Virus record (IMG/VR): IMGVR_UViG_3300042924_004713
Location: 1 to 64,000 of that record
DNA length: 64,000 bases
Source of the DNA: a virus
Reading direction: 5' to 3' (one strand)
A program made the translations under genes and the position numbers. Below the pieces are notes generated by a model. That model searched no databases, was not told where the DNA came from, and saw only the letters and a program-made list of their open reading frames with translations. Each line of letters starts with the position of its first letter. Positions within the stretch are counted from its first letter, which is position 1. Shown piece by piece: positions 11,349-34,187 of the stretch.

Positions 11349-11963
11349 ATGGAGCTAAAACTCAACCAACTCAAAGAGATGGTGCACGGCATACCCTATG
11401 CTGAACAATGGCACCACGCACTGGAGCAACTACTTCCAGACTATCAAATCAATACCCCCAAGCGTATCGCAGCGTTTATTGCTCAATGTGCGCATGAGTC
11501 AGGTGGGTTTAGATTTGTCAGCGAAAATCTCAACTACAAAGCGGAAAGTCTCATGAAGGTTTTCCCCAAGTATTTTCACACCAAGGAATTGGCCAATGCC
11601 TATGCTAAAAATCCTGAAAAAATCGCCAACAGAGTCTATGCCAATCGCATGGGCAACGGAGACGAAGCATCAGGTGATGGCTTTAAGTATCGAGGCCGCG
11701 GATTAATTCAACTCACTGGCAAAGAAAATTATTCTTGGTTCGCAGCCAGTCTGCAGATTTCCCCCGAAGAAGCCACAGAGTACATGAGCACTTTTGAAGG
11801 TGCTGCTCAGAGCGCCTGTTGGTTCTGGGAGACCAACAACCTAAACAAAGAAGCCGACGCAGGTGATATCAAGCTCATGACACGCAAAATCAATGGTGGT
11901 TTCATTGGACTTGAGGATCGTATCAAACACTATAATCATGCACTGCATGTGCTAGGAGTATAA
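11349..11963 (+). CDS. Glycoside hydrolase family 19 endolysin
   Basis: AQCAHESGGF, ENLNY, YRGRGLIQLTG, TRKINGG; SD GGGAG. Confidence 0.92.
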   Translation: MELKLNQLKEMVHGIPYAEQWHHALEQLLPDYQINTPKRIAAFIAQCAHESGGFRFVSENLNYKAESLMKVFPKYFHTKELANAYAKNPEKIANRVYANRMGNGDEASGDGFKYRGRGLIQLTGKENYSWFAASLQISPEEATEYMSTFEGAAQSACWFWETNNLNKEADAGDIKLMTRKINGGFIGLEDRIKHYNHALHVLGV

Positions 11964-14123: not shown

Positions 14124-16385
14124 ATGACCCCAAACCCAGATATTGAAAAAATTGTAGATCATGCAATACAGTTGGCCAAAAAGCGCCAAAATGCCTATAT
14201 CACCGTGGAGCACGTACTTTTGGCCATGGTTATGTATCCTAGTTTTCGTAGAATACTAGAACGTTTTGGAACCAACTGTGATGCCTTGCAAGGTGAGGTC
14301 GAAGCCTATATTGACTCACAGAAAAACACAGCTCGTAATCCCACGGATCAGCCTAGAAAAACACACGCACTGGAGCGACTGTTTAATCGAGCACTGACTT
14401 CTGTGATGCTCACAGGTCGTCGTCAAACCAATGTGATCGATATCTATCTTAGTATCATGGCAGAATCACACAGCCATGCTCAGTATTTTTTGTTGAAGCA
14501 CGGAGTCAACAAACAGGCGTTCCTGGAGTTCTACAACAAACTACAAGGACGTGACGACGCTAGACTCAGTCCAGATCAGGCTAATGAAATTCTCAATGAG
14601 TACTGTACCAATCTCACTGACATGGCCAATCGTAGCCAGCTGGAGCCCATGATTGGTCGTGAGCGCGAAGTTGAAGAAATGATCACGGTGCTGGCCAAGA
14701 GATTCAAGAGCAATGTGCTCATGGTGGGCGATCCTGGTGTGGGCAAAACAGCCATTGTTGAAGGCCTAGCACAGGAAATGGCAGCAAATCGTGTGCCAGA
14801 GTTTCTACATGATCATGAACTATACAGTCTTGAAGTAGGCAGCTTGTTGGCAGGGTCAAAGTACCGCGGCGAATTTGAAGAAAAATTCAAGCTGGTCATG
14901 GCCGCATTGGAAACCAAAAAGAAATGCGTGTTGTTTATTGACGAAGCACACACCATGCGAGGCGCAGGTAGTTCAGGATCCAGTACCCTGGACATGGCCA
15001 ATATGATCAAGCCTGCTATCACCAAGGGCGCACTGAAAGTGATTGCCAGTACCACCTGGGAAGAGTATTACGAAAGTTTTGAAAAAGATCGTGCGCTGAT
15101 GCGACGTTTCTACAGACTCAGTATTGACGAACCCACGCCAGAGGTAACCGAACAGATCTTGATTGGCCTGAGTCCTAGATTAGAAAAGTTTCACAACGTG
15201 GAAATTACCACAGAAGCCATTACCACTGCGGTTGAACTTGCAGGTCGTTACATACACGACAAAAAGAATCCAGACAAGAGCATTGACCTTATTGATGCTG
15301 CCTGCGCACGTGAGCGTGTGAAAGACGCAGGCACTGTGCCTATCACTGCTGCCTTGATACAGGAACAGCTCAGCAAGGTCAGCGGAGTGCCTGTGGACAG
15401 ACTAACATCTGAAAGCAGCCAAAATGTCATTGGACTGGAAGGCAACATCAAGAGTCGACTGTATGGGCAAGACTCAGCTGTTGACTCTGTGTTGGAGAGA
15501 ATCTATATCAGCTTTGCAGGCATTGCCAAGGTGGGCAGACCCATTGCCAGCTTTTTGTTCCTAGGTCCAACGGGCACAGGCAAGACCGAACTGGCCAAGC
15601 TGTTGAGCAGCAATCTTGACATGAAGCTGCTGCGCTATGACATGAGTGAATATCAAGAGCGCCACACAGTGAGCAGTCTGATTGGTGCACCGCCCGGCTA
15701 TGTGGGCTTTGAAGACGGCAACGTGGGCGGTGGCAAGCTGATTTCAGATCTCAATAAAAATCCGTTTTCTATTCTTTTGTTTGACGAAATTGAAAAAGCA
15801 CACCCTGATGTGATCAATATCATGTTGCAGTTGCTGGACGAAGGACGCATTACCTCCAGTAATGGCAAAACAGTGGACTGCAAAAACACCATTGTGATCA
15901 TGACATCCAACCTGGGCGCACGTGACAACGAAAACAACAACATTGGTTTCAGTACCGAACTAGAACGCTCGGGCGAAGAAGATCGAGCCATGAAAGAGTT
16001 CTTCCGTCCTGAACTGCGCAATCGTATTGATCAGATCTGCAAGTTTAACAAACTTGACACTCTGGCAATCAAGAAGATCGTGGTTAAATTTGTTGAAGAA
16101 CTACGTGCGGGACTAACACAACACAATATTCGCATCAGTCTCAGCGAACCTGCTGTGAACTATCTGGCTGAACAGGGCTACGACAGCAAAATGGGCGCAC
16201 GTCCACTGAGTCGCAAGATTGATGAACTTATCCGTGTGCCATTGAGCAAGCGCATATTGTTTGAAAAACTGCGTGACTGTCAGATACATGTGGACTACGA
16301 TCAAGAGCTGAAGTTTGATGTCAAGCCCTTGATGACACATCGTGTGGAAAGTGACGGGCTCATAGTTGTAGACACGCCAGAATAA
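14124..16385 (+). CDS. clpA: ClpA-like AAA+ chaperone
   Basis: Clp N domain, two Walker A motifs (GDPGVGKT, GPTGTGKT), KYRGEFEE, PPGYVG, IGF loop, GARP; no ClpB middle domain. Confidence 0.92.
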   Translation: MTPNPDIEKIVDHAIQLAKKRQNAYITVEHVLLAMVMYPSFRRILERFGTNCDALQGEVEAYIDSQKNTARNPTDQPRKTHALERLFNRALTSVMLTGRRQTNVIDIYLSIMAESHSHAQYFLLKHGVNKQAFLEFYNKLQGRDDARLSPDQANEILNEYCTNLTDMANRSQLEPMIGREREVEEMITVLAKRFKSNVLMVGDPGVGKTAIVEGLAQEMAANRVPEFLHDHELYSLEVGSLLAGSKYRGEFEEKFKLVMAALETKKKCVLFIDEAHTMRGAGSSGSSTLDMANMIKPAITKGALKVIASTTWEEYYESFEKDRALMRRFYRLSIDEPTPEVTEQILIGLSPRLEKFHNVEITTEAITTAVELAGRYIHDKKNPDKSIDLIDAACARERVKDAGTVPITAALIQEQLSKVSGVPVDRLTSESSQNVIGLEGNIKSRLYGQDSAVDSVLERIYISFAGIAKVGRPIASFLFLGPTGTGKTELAKLLSSNLDMKLLRYDMSEYQERHTVSSLIGAPPGYVGFEDGNVGGGKLISDLNKNPFSILLFDEIEKAHPDVINIMLQLLDEGRITSSNGKTVDCKNTIVIMTSNLGARDNENNNIGFSTELERSGEEDRAMKEFFRPELRNRIDQICKFNKLDTLAIKKIVVKFVEELRAGLTQHNIRISLSEPAVNYLAEQGYDSKMGARPLSRKIDELIRVPLSKRILFEKLRDCQIHVDYDQELKFDVKPLMTHRVESDGLIVVDTPE

Positions 16386-19163: not shown

Positions 19164-22100
19164 ATGCATATCGATGAACTGGAAAATTATAATTTAGCCG
19201 ACGCTGTACGATTTCACGACGAGCTGAATCCTGGACTTTGGGGCAAAGACGAACATCTGCGCCCCGAAGTTCGTGAAGCACTGCTGCGCATTGCAGACGA
19301 TTTTCGTGAATTTCTAGGTGTTAGTGATCTTGAAGTTCAAGACATCACTATTTCTGGCAGCAATGCTGCCTATAATTACACCCCCAACAGTGATATTGAT
19401 CTACATCTAGTGGTCAATATTCCCGAGCTTGACGATGAAGTCTATCGCGAATTATTCAACGCGAAAAAATATCAATACAACGATCAGCACGATATTCGTG
19501 TGCGCGACGCTGATGTTGAACTCTATGTGCAACCAGCCAATGATCCGCATATCAGCCAAGGCATCTATAGCCTAGTAAACAACAAGTGGCTGTCAGTTCC
19601 CCGACGTCAACGAGCCAAGATAGATGACGACAGTGTGCGTCACAAGGCCGAAGATCTAGAAGCTAGAATCAATCAGGCCATTGAATCTGGCGATCGTGAA
19701 ACCATGGATCGCTTGTGGCAAAAGATCAAGGACATGCGCAAAAGCGGACTAGAACAAAAAGGTGAATTCAGTACAGAAAACCTAGTGTTCAAGATGCTGC
19801 GTGTGAACAAATTAATAGAACGTCTGCAAACAGCACGTCAAGCAGCACGTGATCAAGAACTCAGCCTTAGCGAAAGAAAACGCAAGAAGTCTCGTAAACG
19901 CTATGCATATGGTGGTTACTGGTATCCAGGCTACAGCTATTATGGCAGCGGTTCTGAAGGCAGTGACAGTGGTGGCGATGGCGGCGGTGAAAGTGTTCAA
20001 GAAGACGTAGGCTCAACCTGGGATGGAGTGAGTCCTACCACAAGAATGTTCACTAGCGAACAAGAACACACTGAAAACAAAAACGTAATTGGTAAATTTG
20101 CTAGATTTGTGGCACAGCAGATAGGCATGAGCAAGTTGCCACGTATCCGTGTCACACGAGATCCAAAATGGAGTTCCAAAAACGGTACATTTGGACACTA
20201 TGATCAAAATACACAAACACTGACCATTAGTCTGGCCAATCGCCATATCATGGATGTGCTTAGAACCATGGCTCACGAGCTAGTGCATGCACATCAGGAT
20301 CGCGAACATGGCTTGCCTAGCACAGCTGGCAAGACTGGTAGTCCATATGAAAACGAAGCCAATGCGGTGGCGGGTCGTATCATGCGACGTTGGGCCAAGA
20401 AACATGGCAATATGTTTGATCAGCCTGCCACAGAAGACTATGATCCCAATGCCAGACCTCCAGGACCTGAAACCAAACCCACTATGCCAGCTGGCACTGT
20501 GAGAGTTGATGTTAGTGATGTGTATGACTGGTACAAACTAGGACAGCACATCAGTGACCTCGAAGGTCTAGGCAAACATGATTTTGGCAAAGGACCGCCT
20601 AGTGCTATTTTTAGTTTTGGTGACGAAGACACCGAACACAAATATATTAACAATCTGAAGCGCACTGGCCTTGATGTCACGGACATTGATCCACGCGATC
20701 CCAATCAGCCGCCAGGCATGAAGAAAATCAAAACAGATCCAACCTATAATGTTGATGAAGATTGGAAAAGCAGTCTAGGTGCAGCAGCCGCGGCTGCATG
20801 TATTGCAGGCACACCAGGCTGTGCTACCACTAACACAGATAGCAGTCCCACTGCTGATGTGCTAAGAGGTGTACAAACTGTAGGACGTACAGCACAGGCA
20901 GTAAAGGACATGGGCGTGGGTGGCGCCAAAGAAGAACTAATCAATCAACTTCGTGACAAACTGCGCGGTATACGTGAAGCCACTGGTTACATTCCCACAA
21001 AAAAACAAGCTCGTGATCCTAGATTCTCCATGGCCTTGACAAAGGATATTCAGCCAGGCCAGATTGGCAAGGAAGCAAACAAACTAAAGTTAGACACTGA
21101 CAGTCAAGGTCATCCTGCGCTGTTAATGAAACGTCTTAACAATCTGCTGGAATCAGTTAAGACAGACGAACAATTAGACGAAGACGAACTGTTTGAACTC
21201 AAAATGAGTCCCAGCAATCTGGCCAAAATGGCCAAAGACATTGATGCTAGAGCTGGTCTAGAGTTTGAAATGTATGTGCCTAATGTAGACGCCGACGACG
21301 AGGAATTTGAATCCGAGCCGGATTACGGTGCCGACGAATATTTCCCTATGGGTCCAGGCTGGCAGAGTGATGTTATGGATTTCTTCCGTGGTGGAGATAT
21401 GAGCAGTCCTAGAGTTCTTATTCAACGGGCAATTGATGAACTAAATGAAAATTTTTATGAGTGGGTTGGCGAGCAAGAAGAAGAGTTTTTAGCATCCAAC
21501 GAAGGACGAGAACGAGCCATAGAAATCGCTACCAGCAATGTAAGCAGAGACGATTTTGAAACAGACGAAGAATATGAAGCTGCCGTTCGCGAATACCTGA
21601 CAGACAATGAAGACGACATTAGAGATGAATTAATAGACGAATTCCGCGATGATCTTGATAGCAAGTTCGAAGAATGGCTAGACGATCAAGGCATTCGTAT
21701 GATGGCAGATTTTGCGAGCGAATACGGTTTAGAATGGCCATATTGGACCGAGCCAGATGATTACAGCAGAGGCGGAGCAGACATCGACGACGTAGCACGA
21801 GACTTCCAAGATGCTGTTGGACGTCCGGTGAAAACTGGTGGTTATCACAGCGGTGCTTATAGTCAAACCAATAACTATCGTGTGGAAACAGACAGTAGCT
21901 TGAGTGATCCAGACGAACCAGGTGATGCAGGCTTGGAGTTTATCAGTCCGCCCTTGACCATTCCTGAGATGCTGGGAGATATCAAAAAGATCACTGCCTG
22001 GGCTAATCGTGTGGGTGCATATACCAATGACACCACTGGCCTACACATGAATATCAGTGTACCAGGGTACAGCATGCAAAAGCTAGACTATGTAAAGTTG

Positions 22101-23975
22101 GCCATGTTCTTGGGCGACAACTATGTTCTAGAGCAGTTTGGTCGTGCAGGAAATACCTATTGCAAGTCAGCCCTGAATAAAATCAAAGCAGAAGTAAAAC
22201 AAGATCCCGCAAGACTCAAAAACATGCTTCAGGCCATGCAGGGAGAATTAAACAGCATAGCCAGCAAAATTGTTCATACCGGCAACACTGACAAATATAC
22301 CAGCATCAACACCAAGGACAATCGTGTGGAGTTTCGCAGTCCTGGCGGCGATTATCTTGACATATTAGCCAACGATCCTGCACAGATCACAAACACACTG
22401 CTGCGCACAGTGGTAGCTTTGGATGTGGCCATGAAACCTGAAGCGTTCCGTCAAGAGTACATGAAAAAGCTGTACAAGACTCTCACACCAACGGAATTCA
22501 CAGGCGGTCGAGGCGAGCGTCAAACTAGATTGGAATCACAGACCAACGAGGTCGCTGACCTGCTCAGCAAGTACATCGCAGGTGAATTGCCGCAGTCAGC
22601 ACTAAAAAGCTTTATCCAGCAGATTAAGAAAAAGCGTGACGATAAGAAGCAGCCACCAGAAACGCAAACACCTAGTCGTGATCAAGAGTTTTCAGGCACT
22701 TGGGAAATTGTGGCTCGTAATACCGACGAAGTAGTACGCCAATTTAGTGGTGTTGGTAATGCCATAAGAGATGCTGAAGTGTGGGCAAGAAGATGGGCAA
22801 TGGATACCGGATATGATGATCCGTACTATGTGCGCCCTGTAATGCGACCAAGAACCGCGCCACCTGAAACCTCCATTTATCAAATTGTAAACTACCAAGA
22901 CGGTGAAGTGTTAAGTCCGGGACTAAACATGCCTTGGGTTTATGCTCGTGCTCTTGCTGATGATATAGCTCGGCGTCGTGGTATGGGTAGAGCCGACATC
23001 AGAATTGTTGACCTAGAAAACAATCAGACCTATAGTTTTGAAGGTAGACTGATACAGCCAAGTGTGAGAGCCACTGCCGGGGAACCTGTACCAGCTGGTA
23101 GTGTAGGTGGTGGATTCGCTCGAGCACCACATACCAGCATATATCAATTGATTGATAATAGAAATGGTCAAATAATGCTAGGCGGCGAAACAAGAACTTT
23201 TGCTGACACCGTAGAGAAGGCCAATATTTTAATGCGTGACTATAGGCTTACAGCTGATGATATTAGAATTGTTGATATGTATACCAATACTGTATATGAT
23301 ATCAATGGTCGTCCTGTAAGTGGCAACAATGCTAATACTTCTAGCATAGATGGCGAGCAAAGCACAGATGCCAACTACGAAATCATTGATCTTGAAACTC
23401 GTGGACCAGTTTTTAGATTCATTGCCAACACCGATCAAGAAGCACAGAGAAAGTTTATAGATTGGTTGGAAGCAGGTGATCGCTTTATTGGCCAGTATTA
23501 TTGGCGTAGAATTGAAGGTCGTGGCATACCAGGGTCAACAGCAGAACTGCAACGACAGCGATCAGATCAGCAAGTACAAGGTTTTAGAGTCTCTTATACC
23601 GTTACCCATGACGATGAAGTTAGAAATAACACTGTGACTATTCAAGCCCGTAATGCTGACGCTGCAATGGATGTTATGAGAACTAATTTACAACGGGCTG
23701 GATATGAGGTTCTTAGAATTGAAGCTGAACCTGTGGCACAAACTCTAGAGCCACCACCAGAAACAGTAGATATTTCAATGCCCGGTCAGGCTCGCGGAAC
23801 AGAAAGCTTACCACCCGGCAACACTCGCTGGTTGATACTTGATCCAAACGACCGTGAAGTATATAGTTTTGTACATCGTAGTAATCAAGGCGAAGCAAAT
23901 CAATATGCTGTGAACTGGCTAAGACAAAACGGTCTACTAGGCAGTGGCGAATTCATGGTGGTGCCAGCAAGATGA
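19164..23975 (+). CDS. Large polyvalent protein: Pol-beta nucleotidyltransferase, HExxH metallopeptidase, putative amidoligase, C-terminal repeats
   Basis: GSNAAY..SDIDLH; MAHELVH..E.EANA; GLEFE, GLEFISPP, TGLHMNIS, VEFR; duplicated TSIYQ...DIRIVD modules. Confidence 0.8.
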   Translation: MHIDELENYNLADAVRFHDELNPGLWGKDEHLRPEVREALLRIADDFREFLGVSDLEVQDITISGSNAAYNYTPNSDIDLHLVVNIPELDDEVYRELFNAKKYQYNDQHDIRVRDADVELYVQPANDPHISQGIYSLVNNKWLSVPRRQRAKIDDDSVRHKAEDLEARINQAIESGDRETMDRLWQKIKDMRKSGLEQKGEFSTENLVFKMLRVNKLIERLQTARQAARDQELSLSERKRKKSRKRYAYGGYWYPGYSYYGSGSEGSDSGGDGGGESVQEDVGSTWDGVSPTTRMFTSEQEHTENKNVIGKFARFVAQQIGMSKLPRIRVTRDPKWSSKNGTFGHYDQNTQTLTISLANRHIMDVLRTMAHELVHAHQDREHGLPSTAGKTGSPYENEANAVAGRIMRRWAKKHGNMFDQPATEDYDPNARPPGPETKPTMPAGTVRVDVSDVYDWYKLGQHISDLEGLGKHDFGKGPPSAIFSFGDEDTEHKYINNLKRTGLDVTDIDPRDPNQPPGMKKIKTDPTYNVDEDWKSSLGAAAAAACIAGTPGCATTNTDSSPTADVLRGVQTVGRTAQAVKDMGVGGAKEELINQLRDKLRGIREATGYIPTKKQARDPRFSMALTKDIQPGQIGKEANKLKLDTDSQGHPALLMKRLNNLLESVKTDEQLDEDELFELKMSPSNLAKMAKDIDARAGLEFEMYVPNVDADDEEFESEPDYGADEYFPMGPGWQSDVMDFFRGGDMSSPRVLIQRAIDELNENFYEWVGEQEEEFLASNEGRERAIEIATSNVSRDDFETDEEYEAAVREYLTDNEDDIRDELIDEFRDDLDSKFEEWLDDQGIRMMADFASEYGLEWPYWTEPDDYSRGGADIDDVARDFQDAVGRPVKTGGYHSGAYSQTNNYRVETDSSLSDPDEPGDAGLEFISPPLTIPEMLGDIKKITAWANRVGAYTNDTTGLHMNISVPGYSMQKLDYVKLAMFLGDNYVLEQFGRAGNTYCKSALNKIKAEVKQDPARLKNMLQAMQGELNSIASKIVHTGNTDKYTSINTKDNRVEFRSPGGDYLDILANDPAQITNTLLRTVVALDVAMKPEAFRQEYMKKLYKTLTPTEFTGGRGERQTRLESQTNEVADLLSKYIAGELPQSALKSFIQQIKKKRDDKKQPPETQTPSRDQEFSGTWEIVARNTDEVVRQFSGVGNAIRDAEVWARRWAMDTGYDDPYYVRPVMRPRTAPPETSIYQIVNYQDGEVLSPGLNMPWVYARALADDIARRRGMGRADIRIVDLENNQTYSFEGRLIQPSVRATAGEPVPAGSVGGGFARAPHTSIYQLIDNRNGQIMLGGETRTFADTVEKANILMRDYRLTADDIRIVDMYTNTVYDINGRPVSGNNANTSSIDGEQSTDANYEIIDLETRGPVFRFIANTDQEAQRKFIDWLEAGDRFIGQYYWRRIEGRGIPGSTAELQRQRSDQQVQGFRVSYTVTHDDEVRNNTVTIQARNADAAMDVMRTNLQRAGYEVLRIEAEPVAQTLEPPPETVDISMPGQARGTESLPPGNTRWLILDPNDREVYSFVHRSNQGEANQYAVNWLRQNGLLGSGEFMVVPAR
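22869..23320 (+). repeat. Diverged tandem protein repeat (2 copies, about 60 aa)
   Basis: TSIYQIVNYQDGEVL...ADIRIVDLENNQTYSFEGR vs TSIYQLIDNRNGQIM...DDIRIVDMYTNTVYDINGR; boundaries approximate. Confidence 0.75.
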
Positions 23976-25549
23976 GAGCCAGCGAGTTTATTGTAGAATC
24001 AAAGATACCTGATGTGGTCTATCACGGCACGGCATCTGCCAACCTCACCAACATAATGAAACACGGTATCAAACCCAAGTTAAATCGTTATGCATACTCC
24101 AATAGACAACACGGTGGCGGAATAGCAACAGGTTTAGAACTAGAGCCAGGTAAACGTAGAAGTGATTTAGAAACTATCAGCACCAGTGTGAACTTTGACA
24201 ACAGTTTAGAGTATGCCAAATTGGGTGGCAGCACAGGTTCAGGCTCTCCTGGCGTGGTACTAGCGTTTCGTCCATTGCCCAGTGATAGCTTTGAAGAAAC
24301 CGGCATGCCTGGTGAAGTTGTATTCCGCAATGCTATCTCTCCAGATAGACTACAAATAGTCTGGCCCCAACGACTAGCGGGCAAAGAAAAACAACTCGCA
24401 CAAAAAGCCGAAAAGAAAAAACAATCAGGTGCTGAAAAAACACAGCAGATCAAAAGCATTAACCAGCAACTCAAAGCCGCAGGTTCTAGTATAAGAATCA
24501 AGTCAACCAACCCTAATACTGCAAGAATTGCCATATGGTTTATGGATCCTGACAACCCTGTACAGGTAGGCAACACCAACATAGATGATCAAAATTTCGC
24601 AGTATTCTTGAAAAAAGAACTAGCTAACCCTGCACCCAACAAACAACGCTATTATGGTAGAACCAATTGGTTAAATGAATTCGCTCCTGAAGGATTTGAG
24701 CAATACAGTTTATACACCGGTGATGGTGTTAGAAATCATTTAGTTGATAAATTTTCGTCATTAAACGCAGCCAAGGAAGAAGTTGAGTTTATATGGGACT
24801 CAGATCCCGAAGCTCGTCTGGCTATATGGTTTATTAAAAATCTAAATGATGAAGTGGTGTGGTCCTATGATCCACAGGAAATAGCGGATGCGCCAAGATA
24901 TCAGTTTAGAAAAAAATCTGATGATCTTGAAGAAATGAATCGTAGAGGATTCCTAGGAGCCATGGGAGCAGGTGCAATGGCTGCTGCGGGAGTTCCCTCA
25001 CAAGCAGCTAACAAGGTGGGACCACCCATGCTCAGTGCCAACATTGGTGCAGAAGAGGCTCTTCATCGTGCGGCTCGTGCTGCTGGCATACGTGGCGTGG
25101 AACTTGCGCAGTTTCTAGCACAGTGTTATCATGAGTCTGGCGGCTTTAAATACATGCAAGAACTAGGTGATCCACGTTATTTTCTACGATACGATCCTAG
25201 AGTAGATCCTGCCAAGGCACGTGTGCTAGGTAATGTAAAGCCAGGAGATGGTGAACGCTACAAGGGTCGTGGATTTATACAGATCACTGGCAGAGATAAC
25301 TATCGTAGAGCCGGTGAAGCTCTGGGTCTGCCCTTGGAAGACCGGCCAGAACTCGCAGCTAGAATGGATGTGGCAGCACGTATTGCAGTATGGTATTGGA
25401 AACAAAGAGTCAAGCCCAATGTGTCTAATTTCAATGACACTCGTGCGGTGACTCGGCAAATCAATCCCAACATGCGCGGTCTTGAAGATCGACATGAAAA
25501 TTTCAAAGACTATAAAAAGGTCTTTAGTATGAATTGGAAAGCTGTATGA
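23972..25549 (+). CDS. Polyprotein: ADP-ribosyltransferase-fold domain, middle module, Tat-signal-like segment and GH19 lysozyme
   Basis: VYHGT..STS..YA..EVVF; EEMNRRGFLGAMGAG; AQCYHESGGF, YKGRGFIQITG. Confidence 0.8.
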   Translation: MRASEFIVESKIPDVVYHGTASANLTNIMKHGIKPKLNRYAYSNRQHGGGIATGLELEPGKRRSDLETISTSVNFDNSLEYAKLGGSTGSGSPGVVLAFRPLPSDSFEETGMPGEVVFRNAISPDRLQIVWPQRLAGKEKQLAQKAEKKKQSGAEKTQQIKSINQQLKAAGSSIRIKSTNPNTARIAIWFMDPDNPVQVGNTNIDDQNFAVFLKKELANPAPNKQRYYGRTNWLNEFAPEGFEQYSLYTGDGVRNHLVDKFSSLNAAKEEVEFIWDSDPEARLAIWFIKNLNDEVVWSYDPQEIADAPRYQFRKKSDDLEEMNRRGFLGAMGAGAMAAAGVPSQAANKVGPPMLSANIGAEEALHRAARAAGIRGVELAQFLAQCYHESGGFKYMQELGDPRYFLRYDPRVDPAKARVLGNVKPGDGERYKGRGFIQITGRDNYRRAGEALGLPLEDRPELAARMDVAARIAVWYWKQRVKPNVSNFNDTRAVTRQINPNMRGLEDRHENFKDYKKVFSMNWKAV

Positions 25550-26274
25550 AAATCACAGAATTTGTCACGGAAGACTGGCAAAAGACCAATCGCAAGGACA
25601 AGACCTCGGGCATGAGCCGCAAGGCAGTTAAACAATACCGCCGTGAAAATCCCGGCAGTAAACTGCAAACCGCTGTGACCACCAAGCCCAGCAAGTTGAA
25701 AAAAGGTTCTAAGAGCGCCAAGCGTCGCAAGAGCTTTTGTGCTAGAATGCGTGGCATGAAGAAATCACGCACTTCAGCCAAAACAGCTAGAAATCCCAAT
25801 TCAAATATTAATAAAGCACTGCGCCGTTGGAACTGCGAAAGCATTGAGCAAATGCAAGAGCTGGTAATGATTGCCGAGCAAAAGATCGCTGCGTTGCGGC
25901 AAGGTGTGGCGGAAGATCAAGAAGATATCGTAGCCGTCATTGATGGTGTACGTTCGGATAGAACTTACAACGATAGATATCACGCACACAATTCTTTATC
26001 AAAACTAGTGGGATATGGCAAAGCCAAGGTAGCAGAATTGTATATTAACGGCGAAAAAGTAGAACACTTTGAACTAGGAAAAAAATATATTGATTTTGAA
26101 CCCAAGAGTCTAGGTTCAATGTCAGAGGCAGGTCCATTCTCATACGGTGCCAAGAAGCCTAGAAAAGGTAGTGTGGCAGATCTTGCTGCAAAGAAACGCC
26201 AAGAACAGGAAAAAGGCAAGCTGCCTGCGGAACCTAAAGACCATATGGTTGGCACAGCACGGATAATCAAATAA
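25546..26274 (+). CDS. Modular protein with very basic N-terminal module
   Basis: MKITEFVTE, then K/R-rich RRKSFCARM...ALRRWNC; further modules after VAE and MSE. Confidence 0.75.
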   Translation: MKITEFVTEDWQKTNRKDKTSGMSRKAVKQYRRENPGSKLQTAVTTKPSKLKKGSKSAKRRKSFCARMRGMKKSRTSAKTARNPNSNINKALRRWNCESIEQMQELVMIAEQKIAALRQGVAEDQEDIVAVIDGVRSDRTYNDRYHAHNSLSKLVGYGKAKVAELYINGEKVEHFELGKKYIDFEPKSLGSMSEAGPFSYGAKKPRKGSVADLAAKKRQEQEKGKLPAEPKDHMVGTARIIK

Positions 26275-26275
26275 A

Positions 26276-26812
26276 ATGAGAGCACAAGAATTTTTAAAAG
26301 AAGAAACAGGCAATGAGCAAGATTTAGAATCTCTCAAGGAAGCCTGCGAAAACTGGATGGAAATGTATTTTGATGCTAATGACATCAATACAATTTTAAC
26401 ACATCCTTATAGTCAACAATTCAAGCAACCACCAGCCGGTATAGAAAAACTTTATCGTGGACTGGTAGTTGCCGGTGGAAAAGTAAAGGCGGTGCCCGGT
26501 AAAAGCAATAGAAAGTTTGTGGCCTATGCCACACACCCCTACGGTGCTGAAGCATTCTTGGCCAGTCTTGATGTTGGCGGTCGTAAAGTAATCATTGAAA
26601 AACAGTTTAACCCCGCTGACTTTGTGTTAGACTTCACAGGCCTGTATGAAAGTTTGTTTCCTGATCAAGGTCTTCACAATCGGTATGAAACTGAATACGA
26701 AGTTTGGATGCGAGCCACAAGATACTATCAGTCAGCGTCAGAGCAAGAAATAATTAAAGACACTGCCTGGGGTCAGACCGACGACGGTGAACCAGGTAGA
26801 GGAAATCTCTAA
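26276..26812 (+). CDS. Putative ADP-ribosyltransferase-fold protein
   Basis: MRAQEFLKE tag; LYRGL, aromatic-AT strand, ETEYEV (ExE). Confidence 0.55.
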   Translation: MRAQEFLKEETGNEQDLESLKEACENWMEMYFDANDINTILTHPYSQQFKQPPAGIEKLYRGLVVAGGKVKAVPGKSNRKFVAYATHPYGAEAFLASLDVGGRKVIIEKQFNPADFVLDFTGLYESLFPDQGLHNRYETEYEVWMRATRYYQSASEQEIIKDTAWGQTDDGEPGRGNL

Positions 26813-27357
26813 TGAGAGCTTCTGAGTTTATCGCAGAAGGTGTGTCAGTGAGAGATCAGATCCTAGCTGATGTTAAAAAACACGGCGGTGATACCGATGA
26901 TTACTTTGTAAGATACACCAGTGTTGATAAACTAGGCTTCAGCGCACGTCAATGGTTTTCTAGAACCCCCGATGTGGATCATCCAAAATTTCACGTGGAC
27001 TTTATAGGACACGATGTGGGTCGATTGGCACTTTGGTTTTATCCCTTGAAAACTGCCATGGACACCAGTAGAACTCTGTATGGCAGTGAACAACCCTATG
27101 TATGGTTGGTCAAGCTCCGTCCTGATGCTTGGCTACAGACTGTCAAGCGTGGCGACAACACAGTTGAGCCGCCACCTCCAGGCAAACAAAGAGTGGGAAT
27201 ACTGCGCATGAGTCAACCTCCTGCTGCTATCTTTTTCCGGCCCGCATTTGATGTGATTGGTAGATATTATGATTATGCCTCTAGACACAAAAGACATGGT
27301 GAAGTCAAAGGGCCTCCCCCGCCCACACTGTTCCAAAGAATTCGGGGTGAACGATGA
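26812..27357 (+). CDS. Hypothetical protein with MRASEFIAE tag
   Basis: ORF coupled to upstream stop (TAATG). Confidence 0.7.
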   Translation: MRASEFIAEGVSVRDQILADVKKHGGDTDDYFVRYTSVDKLGFSARQWFSRTPDVDHPKFHVDFIGHDVGRLALWFYPLKTAMDTSRTLYGSEQPYVWLVKLRPDAWLQTVKRGDNTVEPPPPGKQRVGILRMSQPPAAIFFRPAFDVIGRYYDYASRHKRHGEVKGPPPPTLFQRIRGER

Positions 27358-27377
27358 AAACATTTAGGAACTAGACC

Positions 27378-28475
27378 ATGCGCTTACACGAAATTCAACA
27401 ACAGCGTAGACCGCATCTTTTTCTTGACATGGATGGTGTTCAAGCAGACTTCTTTTCAGCCTGGGCACGCTTGTTTGGCAAAGAACGCTACAAAGAAATA
27501 GGCAATCGCGCACAACGCGAAGCCACTATCGCAGATCTCAATGCACGTGGTCCTGAATTTGTAGAAGAATTCTTTACAAACTTGCCTGTGTTGCCTGGTG
27601 CGCAGACTCTAATTAAGTTTCTACGTGACAATGATATCAAGTACACAATTCTAAGTGCGCCGCTGCGTGGCAACGAAGCTGCTAGTATCCGCGGAAAGTT
27701 GGCATGGTTAGATCGCCATCATCCTGGCACATCTGCCACTGCGATCTTCACAGGCGAAAAACAACGCTATGCCACTACCAATGGTGAACCAAATGTGCTA
27801 GTTGATGACTTCAAGAAATATGTGAATGCCTGGACCGCAGATGGTGGCATTGCTGTGCTGTATCGTTGGAATAATGTTGGCGCTGCAATTGAACAGTTGA
27901 AAAAGATCTATGGATTAGAGCCAGGTGCTCAGGTCAACAGTCTTGATGCATTACAAGAGGCAGTGGTAGGCACGCTGTATCCTAAAAAAATACTAGGCAC
28001 TGCTAGAGTAGGTGACTTGTCTATTCCTATACACCGTCATCTATATGATCAAGCGCAGAGCCGTGGAATTGATCTAAAAACCATAGAACGCACACTGCGT
28101 AGACTGCCCAGAATAGCCAGCAAACTCAAAAAAATTGAAGCAGGAAACAAGGTATGGGTTTACAACCCTCACGATGAAATTAGTCTAGGCTTTTTTGCAC
28201 TGGACAGTGGTGGATATTTGTTGAACACAGTGATTCCCAATGCGCCACATCAACAGGGAGTTACTGATGTGATACGCATGTATGAAGCAGACATTGAAGA
28301 AAATTTTGCAGACGGTAAAGTCAAGGGCCGGAGCCGGCCTGGGCGTGTAAAACGTGCGGGTGCCAGTTGTGATGGCAGTGTAACCAGTTTAAGAGCCAAG
28401 GCCAAAAAATACAGCGGCGAACGAGGTCGAATGTACCATTGGTGTGCAAACATGAAATCAGGACGTCAAAAATGA
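27378..28475 (+). CDS. HAD-family 5'(3')-deoxyribonucleotidase-like domain plus two extra modules
   Basis: LFLDMDGV, ILSAP, K, LVDD; tail ENFADGKVKG...C...HWCANMKSGR. Confidence 0.8.
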   Translation: MRLHEIQQQRRPHLFLDMDGVQADFFSAWARLFGKERYKEIGNRAQREATIADLNARGPEFVEEFFTNLPVLPGAQTLIKFLRDNDIKYTILSAPLRGNEAASIRGKLAWLDRHHPGTSATAIFTGEKQRYATTNGEPNVLVDDFKKYVNAWTADGGIAVLYRWNNVGAAIEQLKKIYGLEPGAQVNSLDALQEAVVGTLYPKKILGTARVGDLSIPIHRHLYDQAQSRGIDLKTIERTLRRLPRIASKLKKIEAGNKVWVYNPHDEISLGFFALDSGGYLLNTVIPNAPHQQGVTDVIRMYEADIEENFADGKVKGRSRPGRVKRAGASCDGSVTSLRAKAKKYSGERGRMYHWCANMKSGRQK

Positions 28476-28894
28476 GAGACCTACTTAATATACTAGAAGC
28501 AGTGAGCCGCGGCTGTCCTCCTGCAACACAAGACATTGATCTTAATCTAAAGAATCGTCAGAAGGCCATAGAAGAATATCATTATGGCCCGCTGAATCCC
28601 AATGAACCCAATGAAGAATACTGGGCTGAACTAGCCGACAAATGGAATACCAGTGATATTGAATCTGTAAAACAGAATCGCTGTGGCAACTGTGCTGCAT
28701 TTGACATCTCAGAAAAAATGCTGGACTGCATTGCCACTGGTATTGGTGCAGAACCCGGATCAGATCCACATGATACCATAGATGCTGGTCAGCTAGGCTA
28801 CTGTAAGTTTTTGAAATTCAAATGTGCTGCCAAGCGTACCTGCGATGCCTGGGTAGAGGGTGGTCCTGTGACAGGAGAAAAAAATGAGAGCTAA
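28472..28894 (+). CDS. Cys-rich protein with HiPIP-like Cys spacing
   Basis: RCGNCAAF...GYCKFLKFKCAAKRTCDAW. Confidence 0.55.
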   Translation: MRDLLNILEAVSRGCPPATQDIDLNLKNRQKAIEEYHYGPLNPNEPNEEYWAELADKWNTSDIESVKQNRCGNCAAFDISEKMLDCIATGIGAEPGSDPHDTIDAGQLGYCKFLKFKCAAKRTCDAWVEGGPVTGEKNES

Positions 28895-29258
28895 AGAATT
28901 TGTAAAAAAGTCCGCCACTGAAGCTGAAATGCCCTGGAAGGATGCAGTGGATGCAGGTGCCATGACCACACAACAGGGTGCCAAAATAGCTGCCAGTGAT
29001 ATTTCTCAAGCCATTGGTGATTTGGAAAAAAATCAAGCTGCCATTGGTAAAGAAATTGCCACACAAAGAGCTGCTGCCAATTCAGTGCCCTCCAACGTAC
29101 AAGTGACCAGCATGAAGCCAGATGGCAGTTGGACCGGACGTGAGCTACCCAAAACTACTAAAATTGGTCCTATTTCAATTACACGAGGCAGCGGTAATCC
29201 TGTAGCCGGCGGTGCAGTGAAAAAAGCACCACCTGCCTATCCCCCAGGCGCCATCTAA
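28884..29258 (+). CDS. Hypothetical protein with MRAKEF tag
   Basis: SD AGGAG; ORF. Confidence 0.65.
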   Translation: MRAKEFVKKSATEAEMPWKDAVDAGAMTTQQGAKIAASDISQAIGDLEKNQAAIGKEIATQRAAANSVPSNVQVTSMKPDGSWTGRELPKTTKIGPISITRGSGNPVAGGAVKKAPPAYPPGAI

Positions 29259-29323
29259 AAATACACCTGCTGATTTCAGGCCACTAAGTACCAGGCGAAA
29301 ATTCGCTTTTTATAGGAGACTTT

Positions 29324-30262
29324 ATGGCAACCAAAAAACCGGCCAAAAAAACAGCAGCGCCAGCTAAGAAAGCAGCCGCTCCTGTAGCCAAAAAACCCGT
29401 GGCAAAAGCAGCCAAGGCCAAACCCAAGGCTCGAGCCAAACCCCGTGCGCAGGTAGTTGAAGCTGTGGAACAGGAACTGGAATTCAAACCAGTGAGCAGT
29501 TTCTTGAGCATGCATGCTGCCATGGATCCCGAGGCACAAGCAGCCATGATCGCAGAGCAGACCAAACGTGCGTTTGATGTTGAAGCCTATGTACAATTTA
29601 ATGTGGCTCAAACACAGGTAGCAAGATCAATCGTTGAAGAAAACGTCACTGACGCCATGCAGAGCTGGGCTATCAATGCCGGTGGTAATCGTGAAATGAT
29701 CATGCGTACCACAGACGATGTTTATCGCAATCGTCTCATGATGTTGAATCTGTTGAAGCCCGAGAATCCTGTGGAAGCAGCGTTTCAGGAAAGCATGATC
29801 AACAAGACCAAACTGGAATATCTGCAACATCGTAATGTCATGAACCGTCGCATGGCTGATATTGCATATGAAATGGCCAATGCTATCAAGGCCATTGGTG
29901 CAGCGTCGGAGAAATTCTATAATGCCAACGAAGAAATGGCAGCATTTATCAACGACACCGCAGACGAAAATGCAGTATGGTTTGATGGTGAGCTGCGTAA
30001 AATGATGCGTGAAGCCTCAAATGTCACAAATGATCAGCGTATTCAGCACACCATGGAAGTGAGTCAGCTGCTAGCAAATGATGCACAAACAGGCCGTGCT
30101 CGTATTCGCGAAGTTGCAGAATTTGCACAGGGTCTTGGTGACAGTCTGCAGGAACTGCAAGAGTCAGGCAATGAACTGCGCGAAGAAGTGATTAATATTC
30201 GTGAAAAGATCGACGCAGGTCAACGCCGTATCGCTGACACCATTGTAAACAAGCGTAAATAA
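29324..30262 (+). CDS. Coiled-coil protein with histone-H1-like Lys/Ala/Pro N-terminus
   Basis: KKPAKKTAAPAKKAAAPVAKK; SD AGGAG; TAAGTA upstream. Confidence 0.75.
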   Translation: MATKKPAKKTAAPAKKAAAPVAKKPVAKAAKAKPKARAKPRAQVVEAVEQELEFKPVSSFLSMHAAMDPEAQAAMIAEQTKRAFDVEAYVQFNVAQTQVARSIVEENVTDAMQSWAINAGGNREMIMRTTDDVYRNRLMMLNLLKPENPVEAAFQESMINKTKLEYLQHRNVMNRRMADIAYEMANAIKAIGAASEKFYNANEEMAAFINDTADENAVWFDGELRKMMREASNVTNDQRIQHTMEVSQLLANDAQTGRARIREVAEFAQGLGDSLQELQESGNELREEVINIREKIDAGQRRIADTIVNKRK

Positions 30263-30264
30263 AT

Positions 30265-30516
30265 GTGGCCCAGATACGTTGGTGCTGGCGTTGGTACGAT
30301 GGACATACCGCAGTAGCTAGAAACAGTCTGCGTAGGTCCCGTATACTAAACCAGTTACGCCGTATACATAGACAACACCCCGCTTTGAAATTCACAGTCA
30401 AACGCGGGGAGTTTTTTATAGAAGCATGGTTTGTGGATACAAATGATCTGCTGATATTTGCTTTGATATGGCCACCAACTTGTCCTGTGTGGGAGAAATT
30501 TGATGATATTTCCTGA
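30265..30516 (+). CDS. Hypothetical protein
   Basis: ORF fills the gap between genes. Confidence 0.5.
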   Translation: MAQIRWCWRWYDGHTAVARNSLRRSRILNQLRRIHRQHPALKFTVKRGEFFIEAWFVDTNDLLIFALIWPPTCPVWEKFDDIS

Positions 30517-30787
30517 TATGCCTAAACGTCAACACTGGTGGGATCAACACACTGAACCTGTGTCGCCAGTTGCAGTTGAAACCCACACTGTGGTTGTGCC
30601 AGAACTCACGGCTGTCAGCGCCGAAGAATGGTTTGCCAAACATTTTCCAGACACAGTGCCCACAGCTTTGCCCAGTCACCGTGAGCCTTTTGACTGGCGT
30701 AAAGATCCACGGGGCACAGCAGAATTTGCTGCGCTGTGTGGGTTCTTGATAGCATGGGTAGCCTACTGGTATCAAGTATCTCACTAA
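30503..30787 (+). CDS. Hypothetical protein with C-terminal TM helix
   Basis: ORF; hydrophobic C-terminus. Confidence 0.5.
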   Translation: MIFPDMPKRQHWWDQHTEPVSPVAVETHTVVVPELTAVSAEEWFAKHFPDTVPTALPSHREPFDWRKDPRGTAEFAALCGFLIAWVAYWYQVSH

Positions 30788-30794
30788 ATAATTG

Positions 30795-31010
30795 ATGCGC
30801 TTGAATGAACTATTTGAAAACTTGGTACAAAACTATGATCTATACCAAGCTCAGGTGAAAATACAGCAGCCTGGTTATCTAGGACGTATCAACGTCACGG
30901 TGAGTGCGCCCAGCGCCGCTGCGGCACGAGCACTGATCAAAGCACAGTATAATGTAAAAACACATGATATTGGCCAAGTTCGTCGCATGCCCGCAGGAAA
31001 GAAACTATAA
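30795..31010 (+). CDS. Small protein with MRLNELFE tag
   Basis: TAAATA 30785-30790 directly upstream. Confidence 0.7.
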   Translation: MRLNELFENLVQNYDLYQAQVKIQQPGYLGRINVTVSAPSAAAARALIKAQYNVKTHDIGQVRRMPAGKKL

Positions 31011-31432
31011 TGCGTGCTAGAGAGTTTGTTCCAAGAGCCTGGTATGTAACAGTAAACGGTGATCCTGGCATTCTCACAAGAAACACCACACCTGGTGAAC
31101 AGCCCTGGAGAGTCACTTGGTTTGATAGAGAAGATCATGAACCCAATGGTCACACGGACATCAGCAAACTACAAGCCCGTCAGATTCAACGCGGTAACAA
31201 CATAGAAGTTGTAGATCAAGACATAATTTACTATATAGATGCCGGTGAAGAACTTGCGGAAAACAGTTTGTTCTGGCGCCAATATCCTTGTACCAAAGAC
31301 TGTTCAGGTCACCAAGCAGGTGATTCCTGGGCACAGGCACGCGGTATCACAGATGTAACACAATGCCCTCCTGGCAACAGCAACAGCTGGTGGGAAGGCT
31401 GCAAAAGCGAAGCCGAAAAACGTCCTTATTAA
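31010..31432 (+). CDS. Two-module protein with MRAREF tag and Cys-rich tail
   Basis: CTKDCSGHQAG...C...WWEGC after ELAE. Confidence 0.7.
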   Translation: MRAREFVPRAWYVTVNGDPGILTRNTTPGEQPWRVTWFDREDHEPNGHTDISKLQARQIQRGNNIEVVDQDIIYYIDAGEELAENSLFWRQYPCTKDCSGHQAGDSWAQARGITDVTQCPPGNSNSWWEGCKSEAEKRPY

Positions 31433-31435
31433 GCT

Positions 31436-33334
31436 ATGAAACAAAATGTGTATCTTTATGCTCCTAACTTTGAGTCAGGACATGGAAATGTAACGTCGGT
31501 GTGGCTACCCTATACAGTGGGCTGTATCTGGAGTTACGCCATGACCGATCAAAGGCTACGAGATAACTTTAATTTGTGTGGTCTTGGGTTCCTGCGTGAT
31601 CCAGTTGATCAAGTGGTTGATAGTCTTGACAACCCAGCGGTGTGTGGATTTAGTACCTATATCTGGAACGAAAACTACAACCTTGCTCTCAGTAAGGCTA
31701 TCAAGCAAAGGTATCCCAATTGCTTGATCTTGTTTGGTGGTCCTAATGTGCCCAATGAAGAAGAAGTTCTGCGACAGTGGCGCAAGGATCATGCCTGGAT
31801 TGATGTATCCATTAGATACGAGGGAGAAATTGCGTTTAAAAATGTGTTGCATGATATTCTTGACAACAAGGTCAAAAGAGACTATGTGGCACATAGAGTA
31901 GAAGATCTTGAAGTGCCTAGTCCTTATCTAACCGGACTGTTTGACGACATTGTCAAAGACAAACAATTCATGTACTCCATGACCATTGAGACCAATCGTG
32001 GTTGTCCATTTCCCTGTACCTTTTGCGACTGGGGTAGTTTGACCTATGCCAAGATCAAGAAATTTCCCTTGGAAAAAGTTTTTGCAGAAATAGAGTGGTC
32101 AGGACGTAACCAAATTGAGTTTATTAGTCTAGCTGATGCTAACTTTGGCGTGTTTCCTGAGCGTGATCAAGCCATTGCCGAATGTTTTATTGAAACCAAG
32201 AAAAAATATGGGTATCCACAGCAGATCAGTTGTACATGGTACAAAAACTCCAATGAAGTAATTTTAAACATAGCCGAGGATCTTACACGTCATGGCCTAA
32301 ACCGTGGACTCACACTAAGTGTACAAAGCATGCACGAGCCCACGCTCACTGCTATCAAACGCAAGAACATGAAGATCAATGATCAGAGTCTGCTGTTTCA
32401 AGAATGCAATCGTAGACACATACCTTTTTATACCGAGCTGATTCTAGGCATGCCCGAAGAAACACTGGCCAGCTGGCGTCAAGGCCATTTGGATCTAATT
32501 GAAATGGGCCAGCATGGTTGTGTGTACATGGCTCCCATTGAGCTGCTGCGCAACGCAGAAATGACCAAACAGATTGATCAGTACAAGATCAAAAGCACAG
32601 TGATATCTGACTATTGGACCTGTGCTCGCAGCGGTATCAGCGAGTGCCAACACATAGCCACGGAAACCAATACCATGTCCACTGATGACATGATAGATGC
32701 TACTATTTTTTCCTGGATGATAATTTCATTTCATCATCACGGCTGGACAGAGCTATATTCAAGATATCTACACAAGCGTGGCTGGAGCTACAAACAGATC
32801 TACGATAATCTTGAAACATGGTTAATGAGCCACCCTTACTACAGCCAACAAATAGCAAAGTTTAGAAGCACAGTGAGTGATTTTTACCATCACAGTAGAA
32901 GCATTGAATACTATGCTCTCTGGGAAGGCGTAAAAAACATGTATGTGGATAGACAACAACATCTTGACAACATAGCAGCATGGTTTCAAACTCTTTGTCA
33001 AGATGACTGCTGCGATGAAATAATTGAACTACAAAGGCATTGGATAATTGATCCATATGGAACCAGTAAGAACACAGTGGAACTGCCCAGTAACTTGATC
33101 TATTGGATATTAGATCTAGAACCCGTGGTAACCAAATCCCCCATACAGTGTGAATTTTCCACTAGCCAAACCGAGTCATGGGCTAACCTAGAGGAGTTCC
33201 TGAGTTTTGTTGTGCTACGCAGAAAAGAAAGTTTTGGCAAAGCCATTGTTAATATTTTGCCGCAACAAACACCAGCTGATTTTGAACTAAATATGGAATG
33301 TCCAATGACATTGTCAAACTTGTCTGTAAGCTAG
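31436..33334 (+). CDS. B12-binding-domain radical SAM protein
   Basis: GFSTYIWN, GGP, EGE, RGCPFPCTFC (CxxxCxxC), DANFG, ELILGMPEET. Confidence 0.9.
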   Translation: MKQNVYLYAPNFESGHGNVTSVWLPYTVGCIWSYAMTDQRLRDNFNLCGLGFLRDPVDQVVDSLDNPAVCGFSTYIWNENYNLALSKAIKQRYPNCLILFGGPNVPNEEEVLRQWRKDHAWIDVSIRYEGEIAFKNVLHDILDNKVKRDYVAHRVEDLEVPSPYLTGLFDDIVKDKQFMYSMTIETNRGCPFPCTFCDWGSLTYAKIKKFPLEKVFAEIEWSGRNQIEFISLADANFGVFPERDQAIAECFIETKKKYGYPQQISCTWYKNSNEVILNIAEDLTRHGLNRGLTLSVQSMHEPTLTAIKRKNMKINDQSLLFQECNRRHIPFYTELILGMPEETLASWRQGHLDLIEMGQHGCVYMAPIELLRNAEMTKQIDQYKIKSTVISDYWTCARSGISECQHIATETNTMSTDDMIDATIFSWMIISFHHHGWTELYSRYLHKRGWSYKQIYDNLETWLMSHPYYSQQIAKFRSTVSDFYHHSRSIEYYALWEGVKNMYVDRQQHLDNIAAWFQTLCQDDCCDEIIELQRHWIIDPYGTSKNTVELPSNLIYWILDLEPVVTKSPIQCEFSTSQTESWANLEEFLSFVVLRRKESFGKAIVNILPQQTPADFELNMECPMTLSNLSVS

Positions 33335-33585
33335 ATTGCCGCTGGGAAGGGCTTGCCCCAACCTATCGCGCCTGGGTCAACAATGAGCTGTTTACCGAAC
33401 GCACTTGGATTTGGACTGAAAACTATATTGAAGAAATATTTCAAGTCAAGGCCATACCCGGAAAATACCGTATTAGATTTGAGTTGGTACAGCCCTGTCT
33501 AGCGGACTTGATTTTTCTAGAAATGCGAGCATTGCACGGTCCAGTGCGTGTAAAAAGTGGTGGCATATTTTTGATTGATTCTTAA
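33298..33585 (+). CDS. Hypothetical protein
   Basis: TAAATA 33288-33293 upstream. Confidence 0.6.
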   Translation: MSNDIVKLVCKLDCRWEGLAPTYRAWVNNELFTERTWIWTENYIEEIFQVKAIPGKYRIRFELVQPCLADLIFLEMRALHGPVRVKSGGIFLIDS

Positions 33586-33586
33586 C

Positions 33587-33763
33587 ATGAGAGCAAGAGA
33601 ATTCATAGGCGAAGATGTATCAACTACCAGCGCCAGTATTGCCCCGGTTGCACAGAGCCTGGGACACATGCCAATGATCAGTCGCATGGGCCGAGTGCCT
33701 ACTGTGCATAAATATCAGACTAGAAAACCTAAACGGACTAAAAATGCTGGCAGAATCGCTTAA
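33587..33763 (+). CDS. Small basic protein with MRAREFIGE tag
   Basis: Shared N-terminal tag. Confidence 0.65.
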   Translation: MRAREFIGEDVSTTSASIAPVAQSLGHMPMISRMGRVPTVHKYQTRKPKRTKNAGRIA

Positions 33764-34187
33764 AACTATATTGGCTTCAAGCTACGCTTATGTGATCAAA
33801 GCGCAGTTTTTTCATTGGAACGTAGAAGGGCCTGACTTTGCTCAACTGCATGATTTCTTTGGCAAGATCTACGAAGAAGTCTATGACAATTCCATTGATC
33901 GCTGTGCTGAATTCATCAGAGTACTTGATGACTACGCTCCGGGTAGTTTTGAACGATTCGCGGAACTGTCTATTATATCTGGACAAATCAAAGTACCTCG
34001 TGCTCGACTCATGCTGGAAGAACTATTACAAGATACAAATAATATGTTGGCATTGTTAAACACTGCGTTTCAAGAAGCAGATGCAGATCAACAGCAAGGT
34101 ATTGCTGACTTTCTGGCCGAACGAATTGACGCCATGGGCAAACATCGTTGGATGTTGAGATCGTTTCTCAAGGAAGCACGAGCATGA
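33744..34187 (+). CDS. dps: Dps/ferritin-family protein
   Basis: HWNVEGPDFAQLHDFF, DRCAE, KHRWML. Confidence 0.92.
   Translation: MLAESLKTILASSYAYVIKAQFFHWNVEGPDFAQLHDFFGKIYEEVYDNSIDRCAEFIRVLDDYAPGSFERFAELSIISGQIKVPRARLMLEELLQDTNNMLALLNTAFQEADADQQQGIADFLAERIDAMGKHRWMLRSFLKEARA

Follow-up and report, generated by a model that had tools for sequence, protein, structure and literature searches.

The DNA analyzed here (the window) is a 64,000-nucleotide (nt) stretch, the first 64 kb of the 166,408-bp IMG/VR record IMGVR_UViG_3300042924_004713, which has 44% G+C and is estimated to be 48% complete. The record represents an uncultured giant T4-like phage from lake water. We examined one of its genes, whose product, P0001, is probably packaged in the phage head. 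The gene has the following elements, all on the plus strand.

23972..25549, plus strand: whole gene, 525 amino acids (aa), encoding P0001; in order, a tag, an ADP-ribosyltransferase (ART)-like domain, domain B, a cut site, a twin-arginine translocation (Tat)-type signal, and a GH19 muramidase
23972..23998, plus strand: N-terminal tag MRASEFIVE, aa 1–9, similar to a T4 capsid-targeting sequence and ending in IVE (likeness to T4 IPII/IPIII)
23999..24559, plus strand: domain A, aa 10–196, predicted ART fold (AlphaFold 2 [AF2] model, Foldseek, alignment, weak Tpt1 profile matches)
24671..24679, plus strand: LNE, aa 234–236, second [LIV]xE motif, in the low-confidence linker joining domains A and B
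24686..24889, plus strand: domain B, aa 239–306, small mobile domain (AlphaFold model; present at various positions in other proteins)
24926..24934, plus strand: LEE, aa 319–321, candidate prohead-protease cut site abutting the signal (motif kept in relatives with an RR signal)
24935..25009, plus strand: Tat-type signal MNRRGFLGAMGAGAMAAAGVPSQAA, aa 322–346 (TIGR01409, RRGFL conservation, family statistics)
25061..25531, plus strand: GH19 muramidase domain, aa 364–520 (Pfam, PHROG, and solved-structure matches)

Several unrelated effector domains are thus present in one chain. The AlphaFold model of P0001 places the ART fold, domain B, and GH19 in three separate, confident globules (aa 10–196, 239–306, and 349–522), and the predicted local distance difference test score (pLDDT) is below 50 at residues 197–211, 219–238, and 307–348 (except residue 325). 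A lone predicted helix at aa 320–338 also has pLDDT below 50. The initial annotation, made from the DNA letters and their translations, had placed a Tat-like stretch about 320 aa into this protein, after DLEE and before GH19, and that is where it lies: DDLEE occupies aa 317–321 (nt 24920–24934) and is followed directly by MNRRGFLGAMGAGAMAAAGVPSQAA. The signal begins at residue 322 of the translation product, and so it is not N-terminal and would become N-terminal only after a cut. The fusion is real and not an assembly artefact, because a diverged orthologue, P0003 (526 aa, 88% identity), retains the fused reading frame and contigs from three further lake-water runs read through nt 24935 without differing from the window. 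At least 18 metagenome runs, from lake water or freshwater, contain the gene. A freshwater metatranscriptome library supplied a 225-nt contig that corresponds to 24288–24512 without differences; it may be a transcript or carried-over DNA, and it is uninformative about a transcript end or an internal start.

The signal of P0001 consists of an N-R-R-G-F-L motif, 22 uncharged Ala/Gly-rich residues, and a signal-peptidase-type end in which SQA is followed by A. The three elements of the textbook Tat signal that had been claimed for it (RRxFL, a hydrophobic region, and an AxA-like end) are all present, and its score against the Tat model is borderline: TIGR01409, which has a curated cut-off of 16.7 bits, gives 18.3 bits with aa 322–380 and 15.6 bits with aa 322–525. 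Scores range from 13 to 22 bits on five tested fragments and from 13.4 to 22.2 bits among relatives. RRGFL is invariant in 22 aligned relatives with a mean column identity of 60%. A complex prediction for E. coli TatC with the signal segment, run without controls, returned a score of 0.00 and is evidence neither way.

The GH19 assignment is secure: aa 373–486 match PF00182 (4e-10, 40.3 bits, cut-off 25.5), aa 364–518 match the phrog_181 endolysin at 5.5e-44, and the solved phage GH19 lysins 7r6s and 4ok7 match P0001 at 2e-24 and 4e-20, respectively. Glu388 (in HES) and Glu397 (in MQE), which lie about nine residues apart and are invariant in the 22 aligned relatives, are presumably the catalytic pair, by the arrangement known for GH19 enzymes; activity is predicted only. 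The domain is distinct from a second GH19 protein in the window, as the initial annotation had noted.

11349..11963, plus strand: canonical GH19 endolysin without tag or signal (profile matches)

Because this separate endolysin exists, the GH19 domain of P0001 is not needed as a lysis enzyme. Domain A was modeled by AF2 with a pLDDT of 84, and its nearest fold is Tpt1/KptA (Foldseek, 9ldi and 8tfi, E 7e-5 to 2e-4). Its YHGT motif (aa 17–20) is invariant in the alignment, and its Pfam and NCBIfam Tpt1 matches are weak. Other members of the domain A family also carry the tag. An unfused version of the N-terminal part, P0004, has no adjoining GH19 in the gene list of its contigs.

The C-terminal module (signal and GH19) has hundreds of metagenomic matches, and we classified 220 cluster representatives. 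An RR[GSN]F[LM] motif is present in 110 (the RR class), an Ala-rich, Sec-like stretch headed by W[KR] in 94, and neither in 16. The RR motif is not a chance occurrence, because it is kept in half of this family and RRGFL is invariant in the clade of 22 at 60% mean identity. The conservation of RR, on which the initial annotation had staked its proposal, thus holds within that clade and in 110 of 220 representatives, and does not extend to roughly the other half. In the RR class, the residue preceding RR is S in 61 members, D in 31, T in 15, and N in 3; the uncharged stretch has a median length of 19 residues, with 35% Ala and 27% Gly; all 110 have an AxA-like end; and the first charged residue past the stretch is K or R in 92. 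The junction that the initial annotation had suggested looking for in related phages, Glu followed closely by RRxFL, recurs: [LIVF]xE lies 1–3 residues upstream of RR in 105 of the 110, whatever domain precedes it.

Two architectures are found in the RR class. The standalone proteins (n = 66) are about 205–220 aa long, and in them the tag abuts the RR motif (MRAxEFIxE-IDRRGFLG); P0124, for example, begins MRASEFIIE-IDRRGFLG and is 87% identical to the C-terminal part of P0001. In the fused proteins (n = 44), unrelated domains lie between tag and signal, and the signal is buried 80–450 residues deep. The intervening domains include dCMP-deaminase-like, GGCT/AIG2, GNAT, and ART domains, amidoligase-bearing giant proteins, and domains without assignment. 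A cut after the Glu would give the same mature end in every architecture, with RR at position 3–5. On a FastTree phylogeny of the GH19 domain, architecture must have changed between standalone and fused at least 14 times inside the RR class, and signal class must have changed at least 22 times; these counts are approximate because the tree is quick and the domain short. For a co-occurring relative with a different N-terminal domain (...VGYQDDELVN), a contig from one lake sample can be aligned to the window only from nt 24932, which places the module border at the cut motif.

Bacterial genomes almost entirely lack the module. A scan of 185,579 bacterial species genomes gave only two hits, both on small contigs of metagenome-assembled genomes (MAGs). 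Burkholderiaceae was considered as the host and set aside, as the link comes from the binning of one small MAG contig only and is too weak. A tblastn search of 50,697 GenBank phage records with the tag and Tat part (P0124:1–75) gave no match, a result to which the low-complexity filter may contribute.

P0001 contains only three [LIV]xE motifs, at aa 7–9 (the end of the tag), 234–236, and 319–321. All three lie in the tag or in linkers, since the model places them outside the confident globules. The 429 globular residues contain none, an outcome reached by 39 of 20,000 composition-preserving shuffles. Across the 220 GH19 domains there are 93 [LIV]xE motifs where 238 are expected from composition, and 139 domains have none; these counts come from homologues and are not independent observations. 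The ratio of observed to expected motifs is 1.00 in tagged open reading frames (ORFs) and 1.15 in untagged ORFs of the same loci (Mann-Whitney p 1e-4), whereas the control patterns [LIV]xD, Ex[LIV], and [LIV]xK have nearly equal ratios in the two sets. This placement and depletion is the pattern expected for proteins that reside in a prohead with a protease of [LIV]xE specificity. We also observed that, in loci L003–L082 and the genome, the observed/expected ratio of [FYW]xE is 0.88 for tagged ORFs and a higher 1.04 for untagged ones, which may mean that the prohead protease also accepts an aromatic residue at that motif position.

The record also encodes a head module of T4 type. A T4-type prohead protease (Peptidase_S77, PF03420, 4.3e-27) is encoded at genome positions 161271–161813, there is a gp23-type capsid gene (PF07068, 2.2e-100), and a coiled-coil scaffold gene lies between the two. 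The capsid protein is 63–68% identical to those of the jumbo phages PA5oct, Vibrio 2.275.O, Phosso, and fHe-Yen9-03. In T4, the protease gp21 removes the capsid-targeting sequence after Glu. The P0001 tag MRASEFIVE and the MKTYQEFIAE leader of T4 IPII/IPIII (from NC_000866) are both short leaders that end in [LI]xE. Capsid-targeting sequences of the MKTYQEFIAE type take T4 internal proteins into the prohead core (PMC3012670; PMC5694885), and the T4 leader is already in use for the packaging of foreign proteins (PMC3012670).

The tag is not confined to P0001. Co-directional MR/KxxEF-tagged genes start at 23972, 25546, 26276, 26812, 27378, 28884, 30795, 31010, and 33587, forming an array at 23972–33760. 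Outside the array, the 166-kb record contains only three loose M[RK]x(1-3)[ED][FLIVM] matches (40158, 84812, and 85030), none ending in [LIV]xE. Of the tagged ORFs in 1268 kb of related viral loci, 235 have the same orientation as the GH19 gene and 3 the opposite one. The residues of the tag are constant while their synonymous codons vary, which points to selection acting on the tag peptide.

What we observe directly are the features of the sequence, how they are conserved and spaced, the head genes of T4 type, and where the cut motifs lie and are depleted. The reading that we favor, and for which we judge the balance to be even, is that P0001 is a T4-type head cargo polyprotein, maturation of which uncovers the Tat signal of a muramidase; the muramidase would then be injected, and the host would export it. 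The leader MRASEFIVE would target P0001 to the prohead core, where the prohead protease (161271–161813) would cut after [LIV]xE at aa 9, 236, and 321. These cuts would release three products: an effector with the ART fold, a small domain, and a GH19 muramidase with the new N-terminus MNRRGFLG.... This N-terminus would serve as a Tat signal whose n-region has two residues; in known substrates, Tat tolerates short n-regions. Once it had left the capsid along with the DNA, the matured enzyme would fold in the cytoplasm of the new host, the Tat system of which would export the folded muramidase post-translationally. Signal peptidase would then cut after SQA, and the enzyme would act on peptidoglycan. 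The central proposal of the initial annotation, that cleavage after LEE unmasks the signal, is favored by the placement of LEE, the spacing in 105 of 110 relatives, the T4-like tag, and the head genes; it is limited by the presence of RR in only about half of the family.

Besides the non-independence of the GH19-domain counts, several points weigh against export by Tat after head maturation. In 94 of the 220 representatives, a W[KR] Ala-rich signal stands in place of RR, and a few relatives, such as P0149 and P0213, consist of tag and GH19 without any hydrophobic signal (MRAIEFLAELQKPMNQ...). The latter indicate that an export signal is not obligatory for a packaged GH19 module, and the two groups together mean that the module cannot depend on Tat as such. 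The TIGR01409 score sits at the cut-off and not well above it. No TatA or TatC gene is present in the 166-kb record (about 48% complete). The nearest cultured phages by capsid (PA5oct, Vibrio phage 2.275.O, Phosso, and fHe-Yen9-03) lack the tag pattern and lack a homologue of the 1603-aa protein encoded next to P0001. Finally, an early periplasmic muramidase has no obvious benefit and could harm infection.

The alternative that survives best, which we nevertheless consider unlikely, is that the Ala/Gly-rich stretch is a membrane element and not a Tat substrate: either a signal-anchor like those of signal-arrest-release (SAR) endolysins or an inner-membrane insertion peptide of an ejection protein, so that GH19 reaches the wall without Tat, as T7 gp16 does. 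With 35% Ala and 27% Gly, the stretch is similar in composition to SAR domains, and the finding that half of the family has a non-RR hydrophobic stretch at the same place, and a few members none, fits a general membrane role. The W[KR] stretch also heads non-GH19 pieces at nt 20748 and 34403. However, the invariance of RRGFL in the clade with 60% identity, the S, T, D, or N before RR, and the AxA-like end in 110 of 110 relatives are features of a cleavable Tat signal that an anchor does not need. SAR endolysins have an uncleaved N-terminal signal-anchor; the stretch in P0001 is internal and ends in a conserved AxA-type site.

It is less probable still that the signal works in the producing cell, where tag and RR would together make up one long Tat signal for exporting a lysis enzyme and the tag would play no part in capsid targeting. 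RR is among the first 15 residues of the 66 standalone proteins, where it could serve uncut as an N-terminal Tat signal, and precomputed Pfam TAT_signal matches exist for three of the standalone proteins. Export of this kind is hard to reconcile with the 44 fused proteins, in which the signal is 80–450 residues deep, and with the separate signal-less endolysin in the genome. The same tag also heads many proteins without a signal and resembles the T4 leader, and the cut motifs sit at domain borders and are depleted inside domains.

We think it very improbable that ATG 24935 is an internal start from which a separate Tat-GH19 protein is made on the same mRNA, an alternative that the initial annotation had raised while remarking that the codon lacks a good Shine-Dalgarno (SD) sequence. 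The in-frame ATG is located exactly two codons before RR, and 51 of the 110 relatives have M at the equivalent position. The remark about the SD was accurate: the 18 nt upstream of ATG 24935 offer no SD-like pairing (+0.2 kcal/mol, versus -8.5 at the gene's own start), and there is no promoter-like site upstream of 24935 on the plus strand. Many fused relatives have TTA (seven distinct sequences), ATA, or ATT at the equivalent position, and an internal start is therefore unlikely as a general explanation; it would also leave the conserved upstream [LIVF]xE unexplained. Least probable, by a small margin, is that uncut P0001 is a bitopic membrane protein with its enzyme domains cytoplasmic, one spanning helix, and a periplasmic GH19: the single predicted helix (aa 320–338) between globular parts and the preceding basic residues fit this topology (by the positive-inside rule), but a stable anchor would be expected to be more hydrophobic than this stretch, and the tag, the conserved cut motif, the AxA-like end, and the standalone forms are left unexplained.

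The genes that flank P0001 have related features.

19164..23975, plus strand: multi-domain protein of 1603 aa, with a stop that overlaps the start of the gene at 23972 and with a buried signal-like NVDE followed by DWKSSLGAAAAAAC from nt 20748
25546..27357, plus strand: the three next tagged genes, with MKITEFVTE, MRAQEFLKE, and MRASEFIAE (tag pattern)

In the first of these (ORF 19164–23975), NVDE and then DWKSSLGAAAAAACIAGTPGC at 20748–20870 form a [LIV]xE motif and an Ala-rich signal-like stretch ending in Cys, which may be of the lipoprotein type. In the relatives L014, L019, and L047, the homologue of this giant protein itself terminates in signal and GH19. A third buried signal-like stretch is found at 34403–34490 (ORF 34184–35065), where EVEE, DWRSAAAAGALAAANLLGTPAQA, and T follow one another, after VEE and before an unassigned domain. 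A DUF6321 module follows the tag in the gene at 25546. In the cultured T4-like Prochlorococcus cyanophage P-SSM2, an internal DFEFVNE followed by G precedes a DUF6321 module in PSSM2_123 (L091:946–1761), and this motif resembles a tag remnant within a protein of the structural cluster. A few genes upstream of the cargo array, 14124–16385 encodes a 753-aa protein that matches phrog_4871 ('ATP-dependent protease') over its full length (7.5e-237).

Among the closest known parallels are the T4 internal proteins. T4 IPI, IPII, IPIII, and Alt share with the system described here a short leader ending in [LI]xE, T4-type protease, scaffold, and capsid genes, and a variable array of tagged genes. Alt is a packaged ADP-ribosyltransferase, and an ART-fold domain is among the cargo here too. 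Unlike the T4 proteins, P0001 has several domains under one leader, joined at further cut motifs, and one cargo with a complete export signal that a cut would make N-terminal; we know of no T4 internal protein with a secretion signal. Polyvalent proteins are multi-domain effectors of phages and conjugative elements that are thought to enter with the DNA and to be processed into units, including ART and lysozyme domains, and a zincin peptidase has been proposed for their processing (Iyer et al., 2017; PMC5512222). The text of that paper contains no mention of a signal peptide, twin-arginine, or transmembrane segment. In contrast to the polyvalent proteins, the joints in P0001 resemble prohead-protease sites, and some of the units have export signals.

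In its S/T-RR-x-F-L motif, weakly hydrophobic h-region, AxA end, and basic residues near the cut, the signal is like those of bacterial Tat substrates. It differs from them in lying 321 residues into the protein or, in standalone forms, behind a 9-residue acidic leader, and in belonging to a module that is nearly absent from bacterial genomes. The virion-borne wall hydrolases T7 gp16 and T4 gp5 and the signal and SAR endolysins are alike in that an enzyme acting on the wall either travels in the particle or uses a host pathway to cross the membrane. T7 gp16 and T4 gp5 have no secretion signal and come to the wall from outside; signal and SAR endolysins are products of the dying cell and go through Sec. 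A literature search found no Tat-dependent phage lysin, no paper that joins twin-arginine, ejection proteins, and bacteriophage, and none on a layout of the P0001 type. Type VI secretion system effectors reportedly pass from the cytosol of the target cell to its periplasm; the idea of a delivered wall-acting effector that is re-exported by the recipient is the same, and the delivery machine is different.

A broader proposal, which we hold tentatively and somewhat below an even chance, is that uncultured giant T4-like phages of a widespread lineage use a two-step address code. The leader would load proteins into the head, cuts at [LIV]xE would expose Tat-, Sec-, or lipoprotein-type signals, and the translocases of the new host would forward the injected proteins to the periplasm or membranes. 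The usual view places the action of proteins injected by phages in the cytoplasm or where the DNA enters. If the proposal is correct, host machinery could route injected proteins to a second compartment by means of a conserved export signal that head maturation first brings to the N-terminus. The roles of virion cargo would then be wider and would include, for example, early envelope remodelling, exclusion of other phages, and counter-defence, and these phages would offer a natural design for the delivery of folded proteins into the periplasm by means of phage particles.

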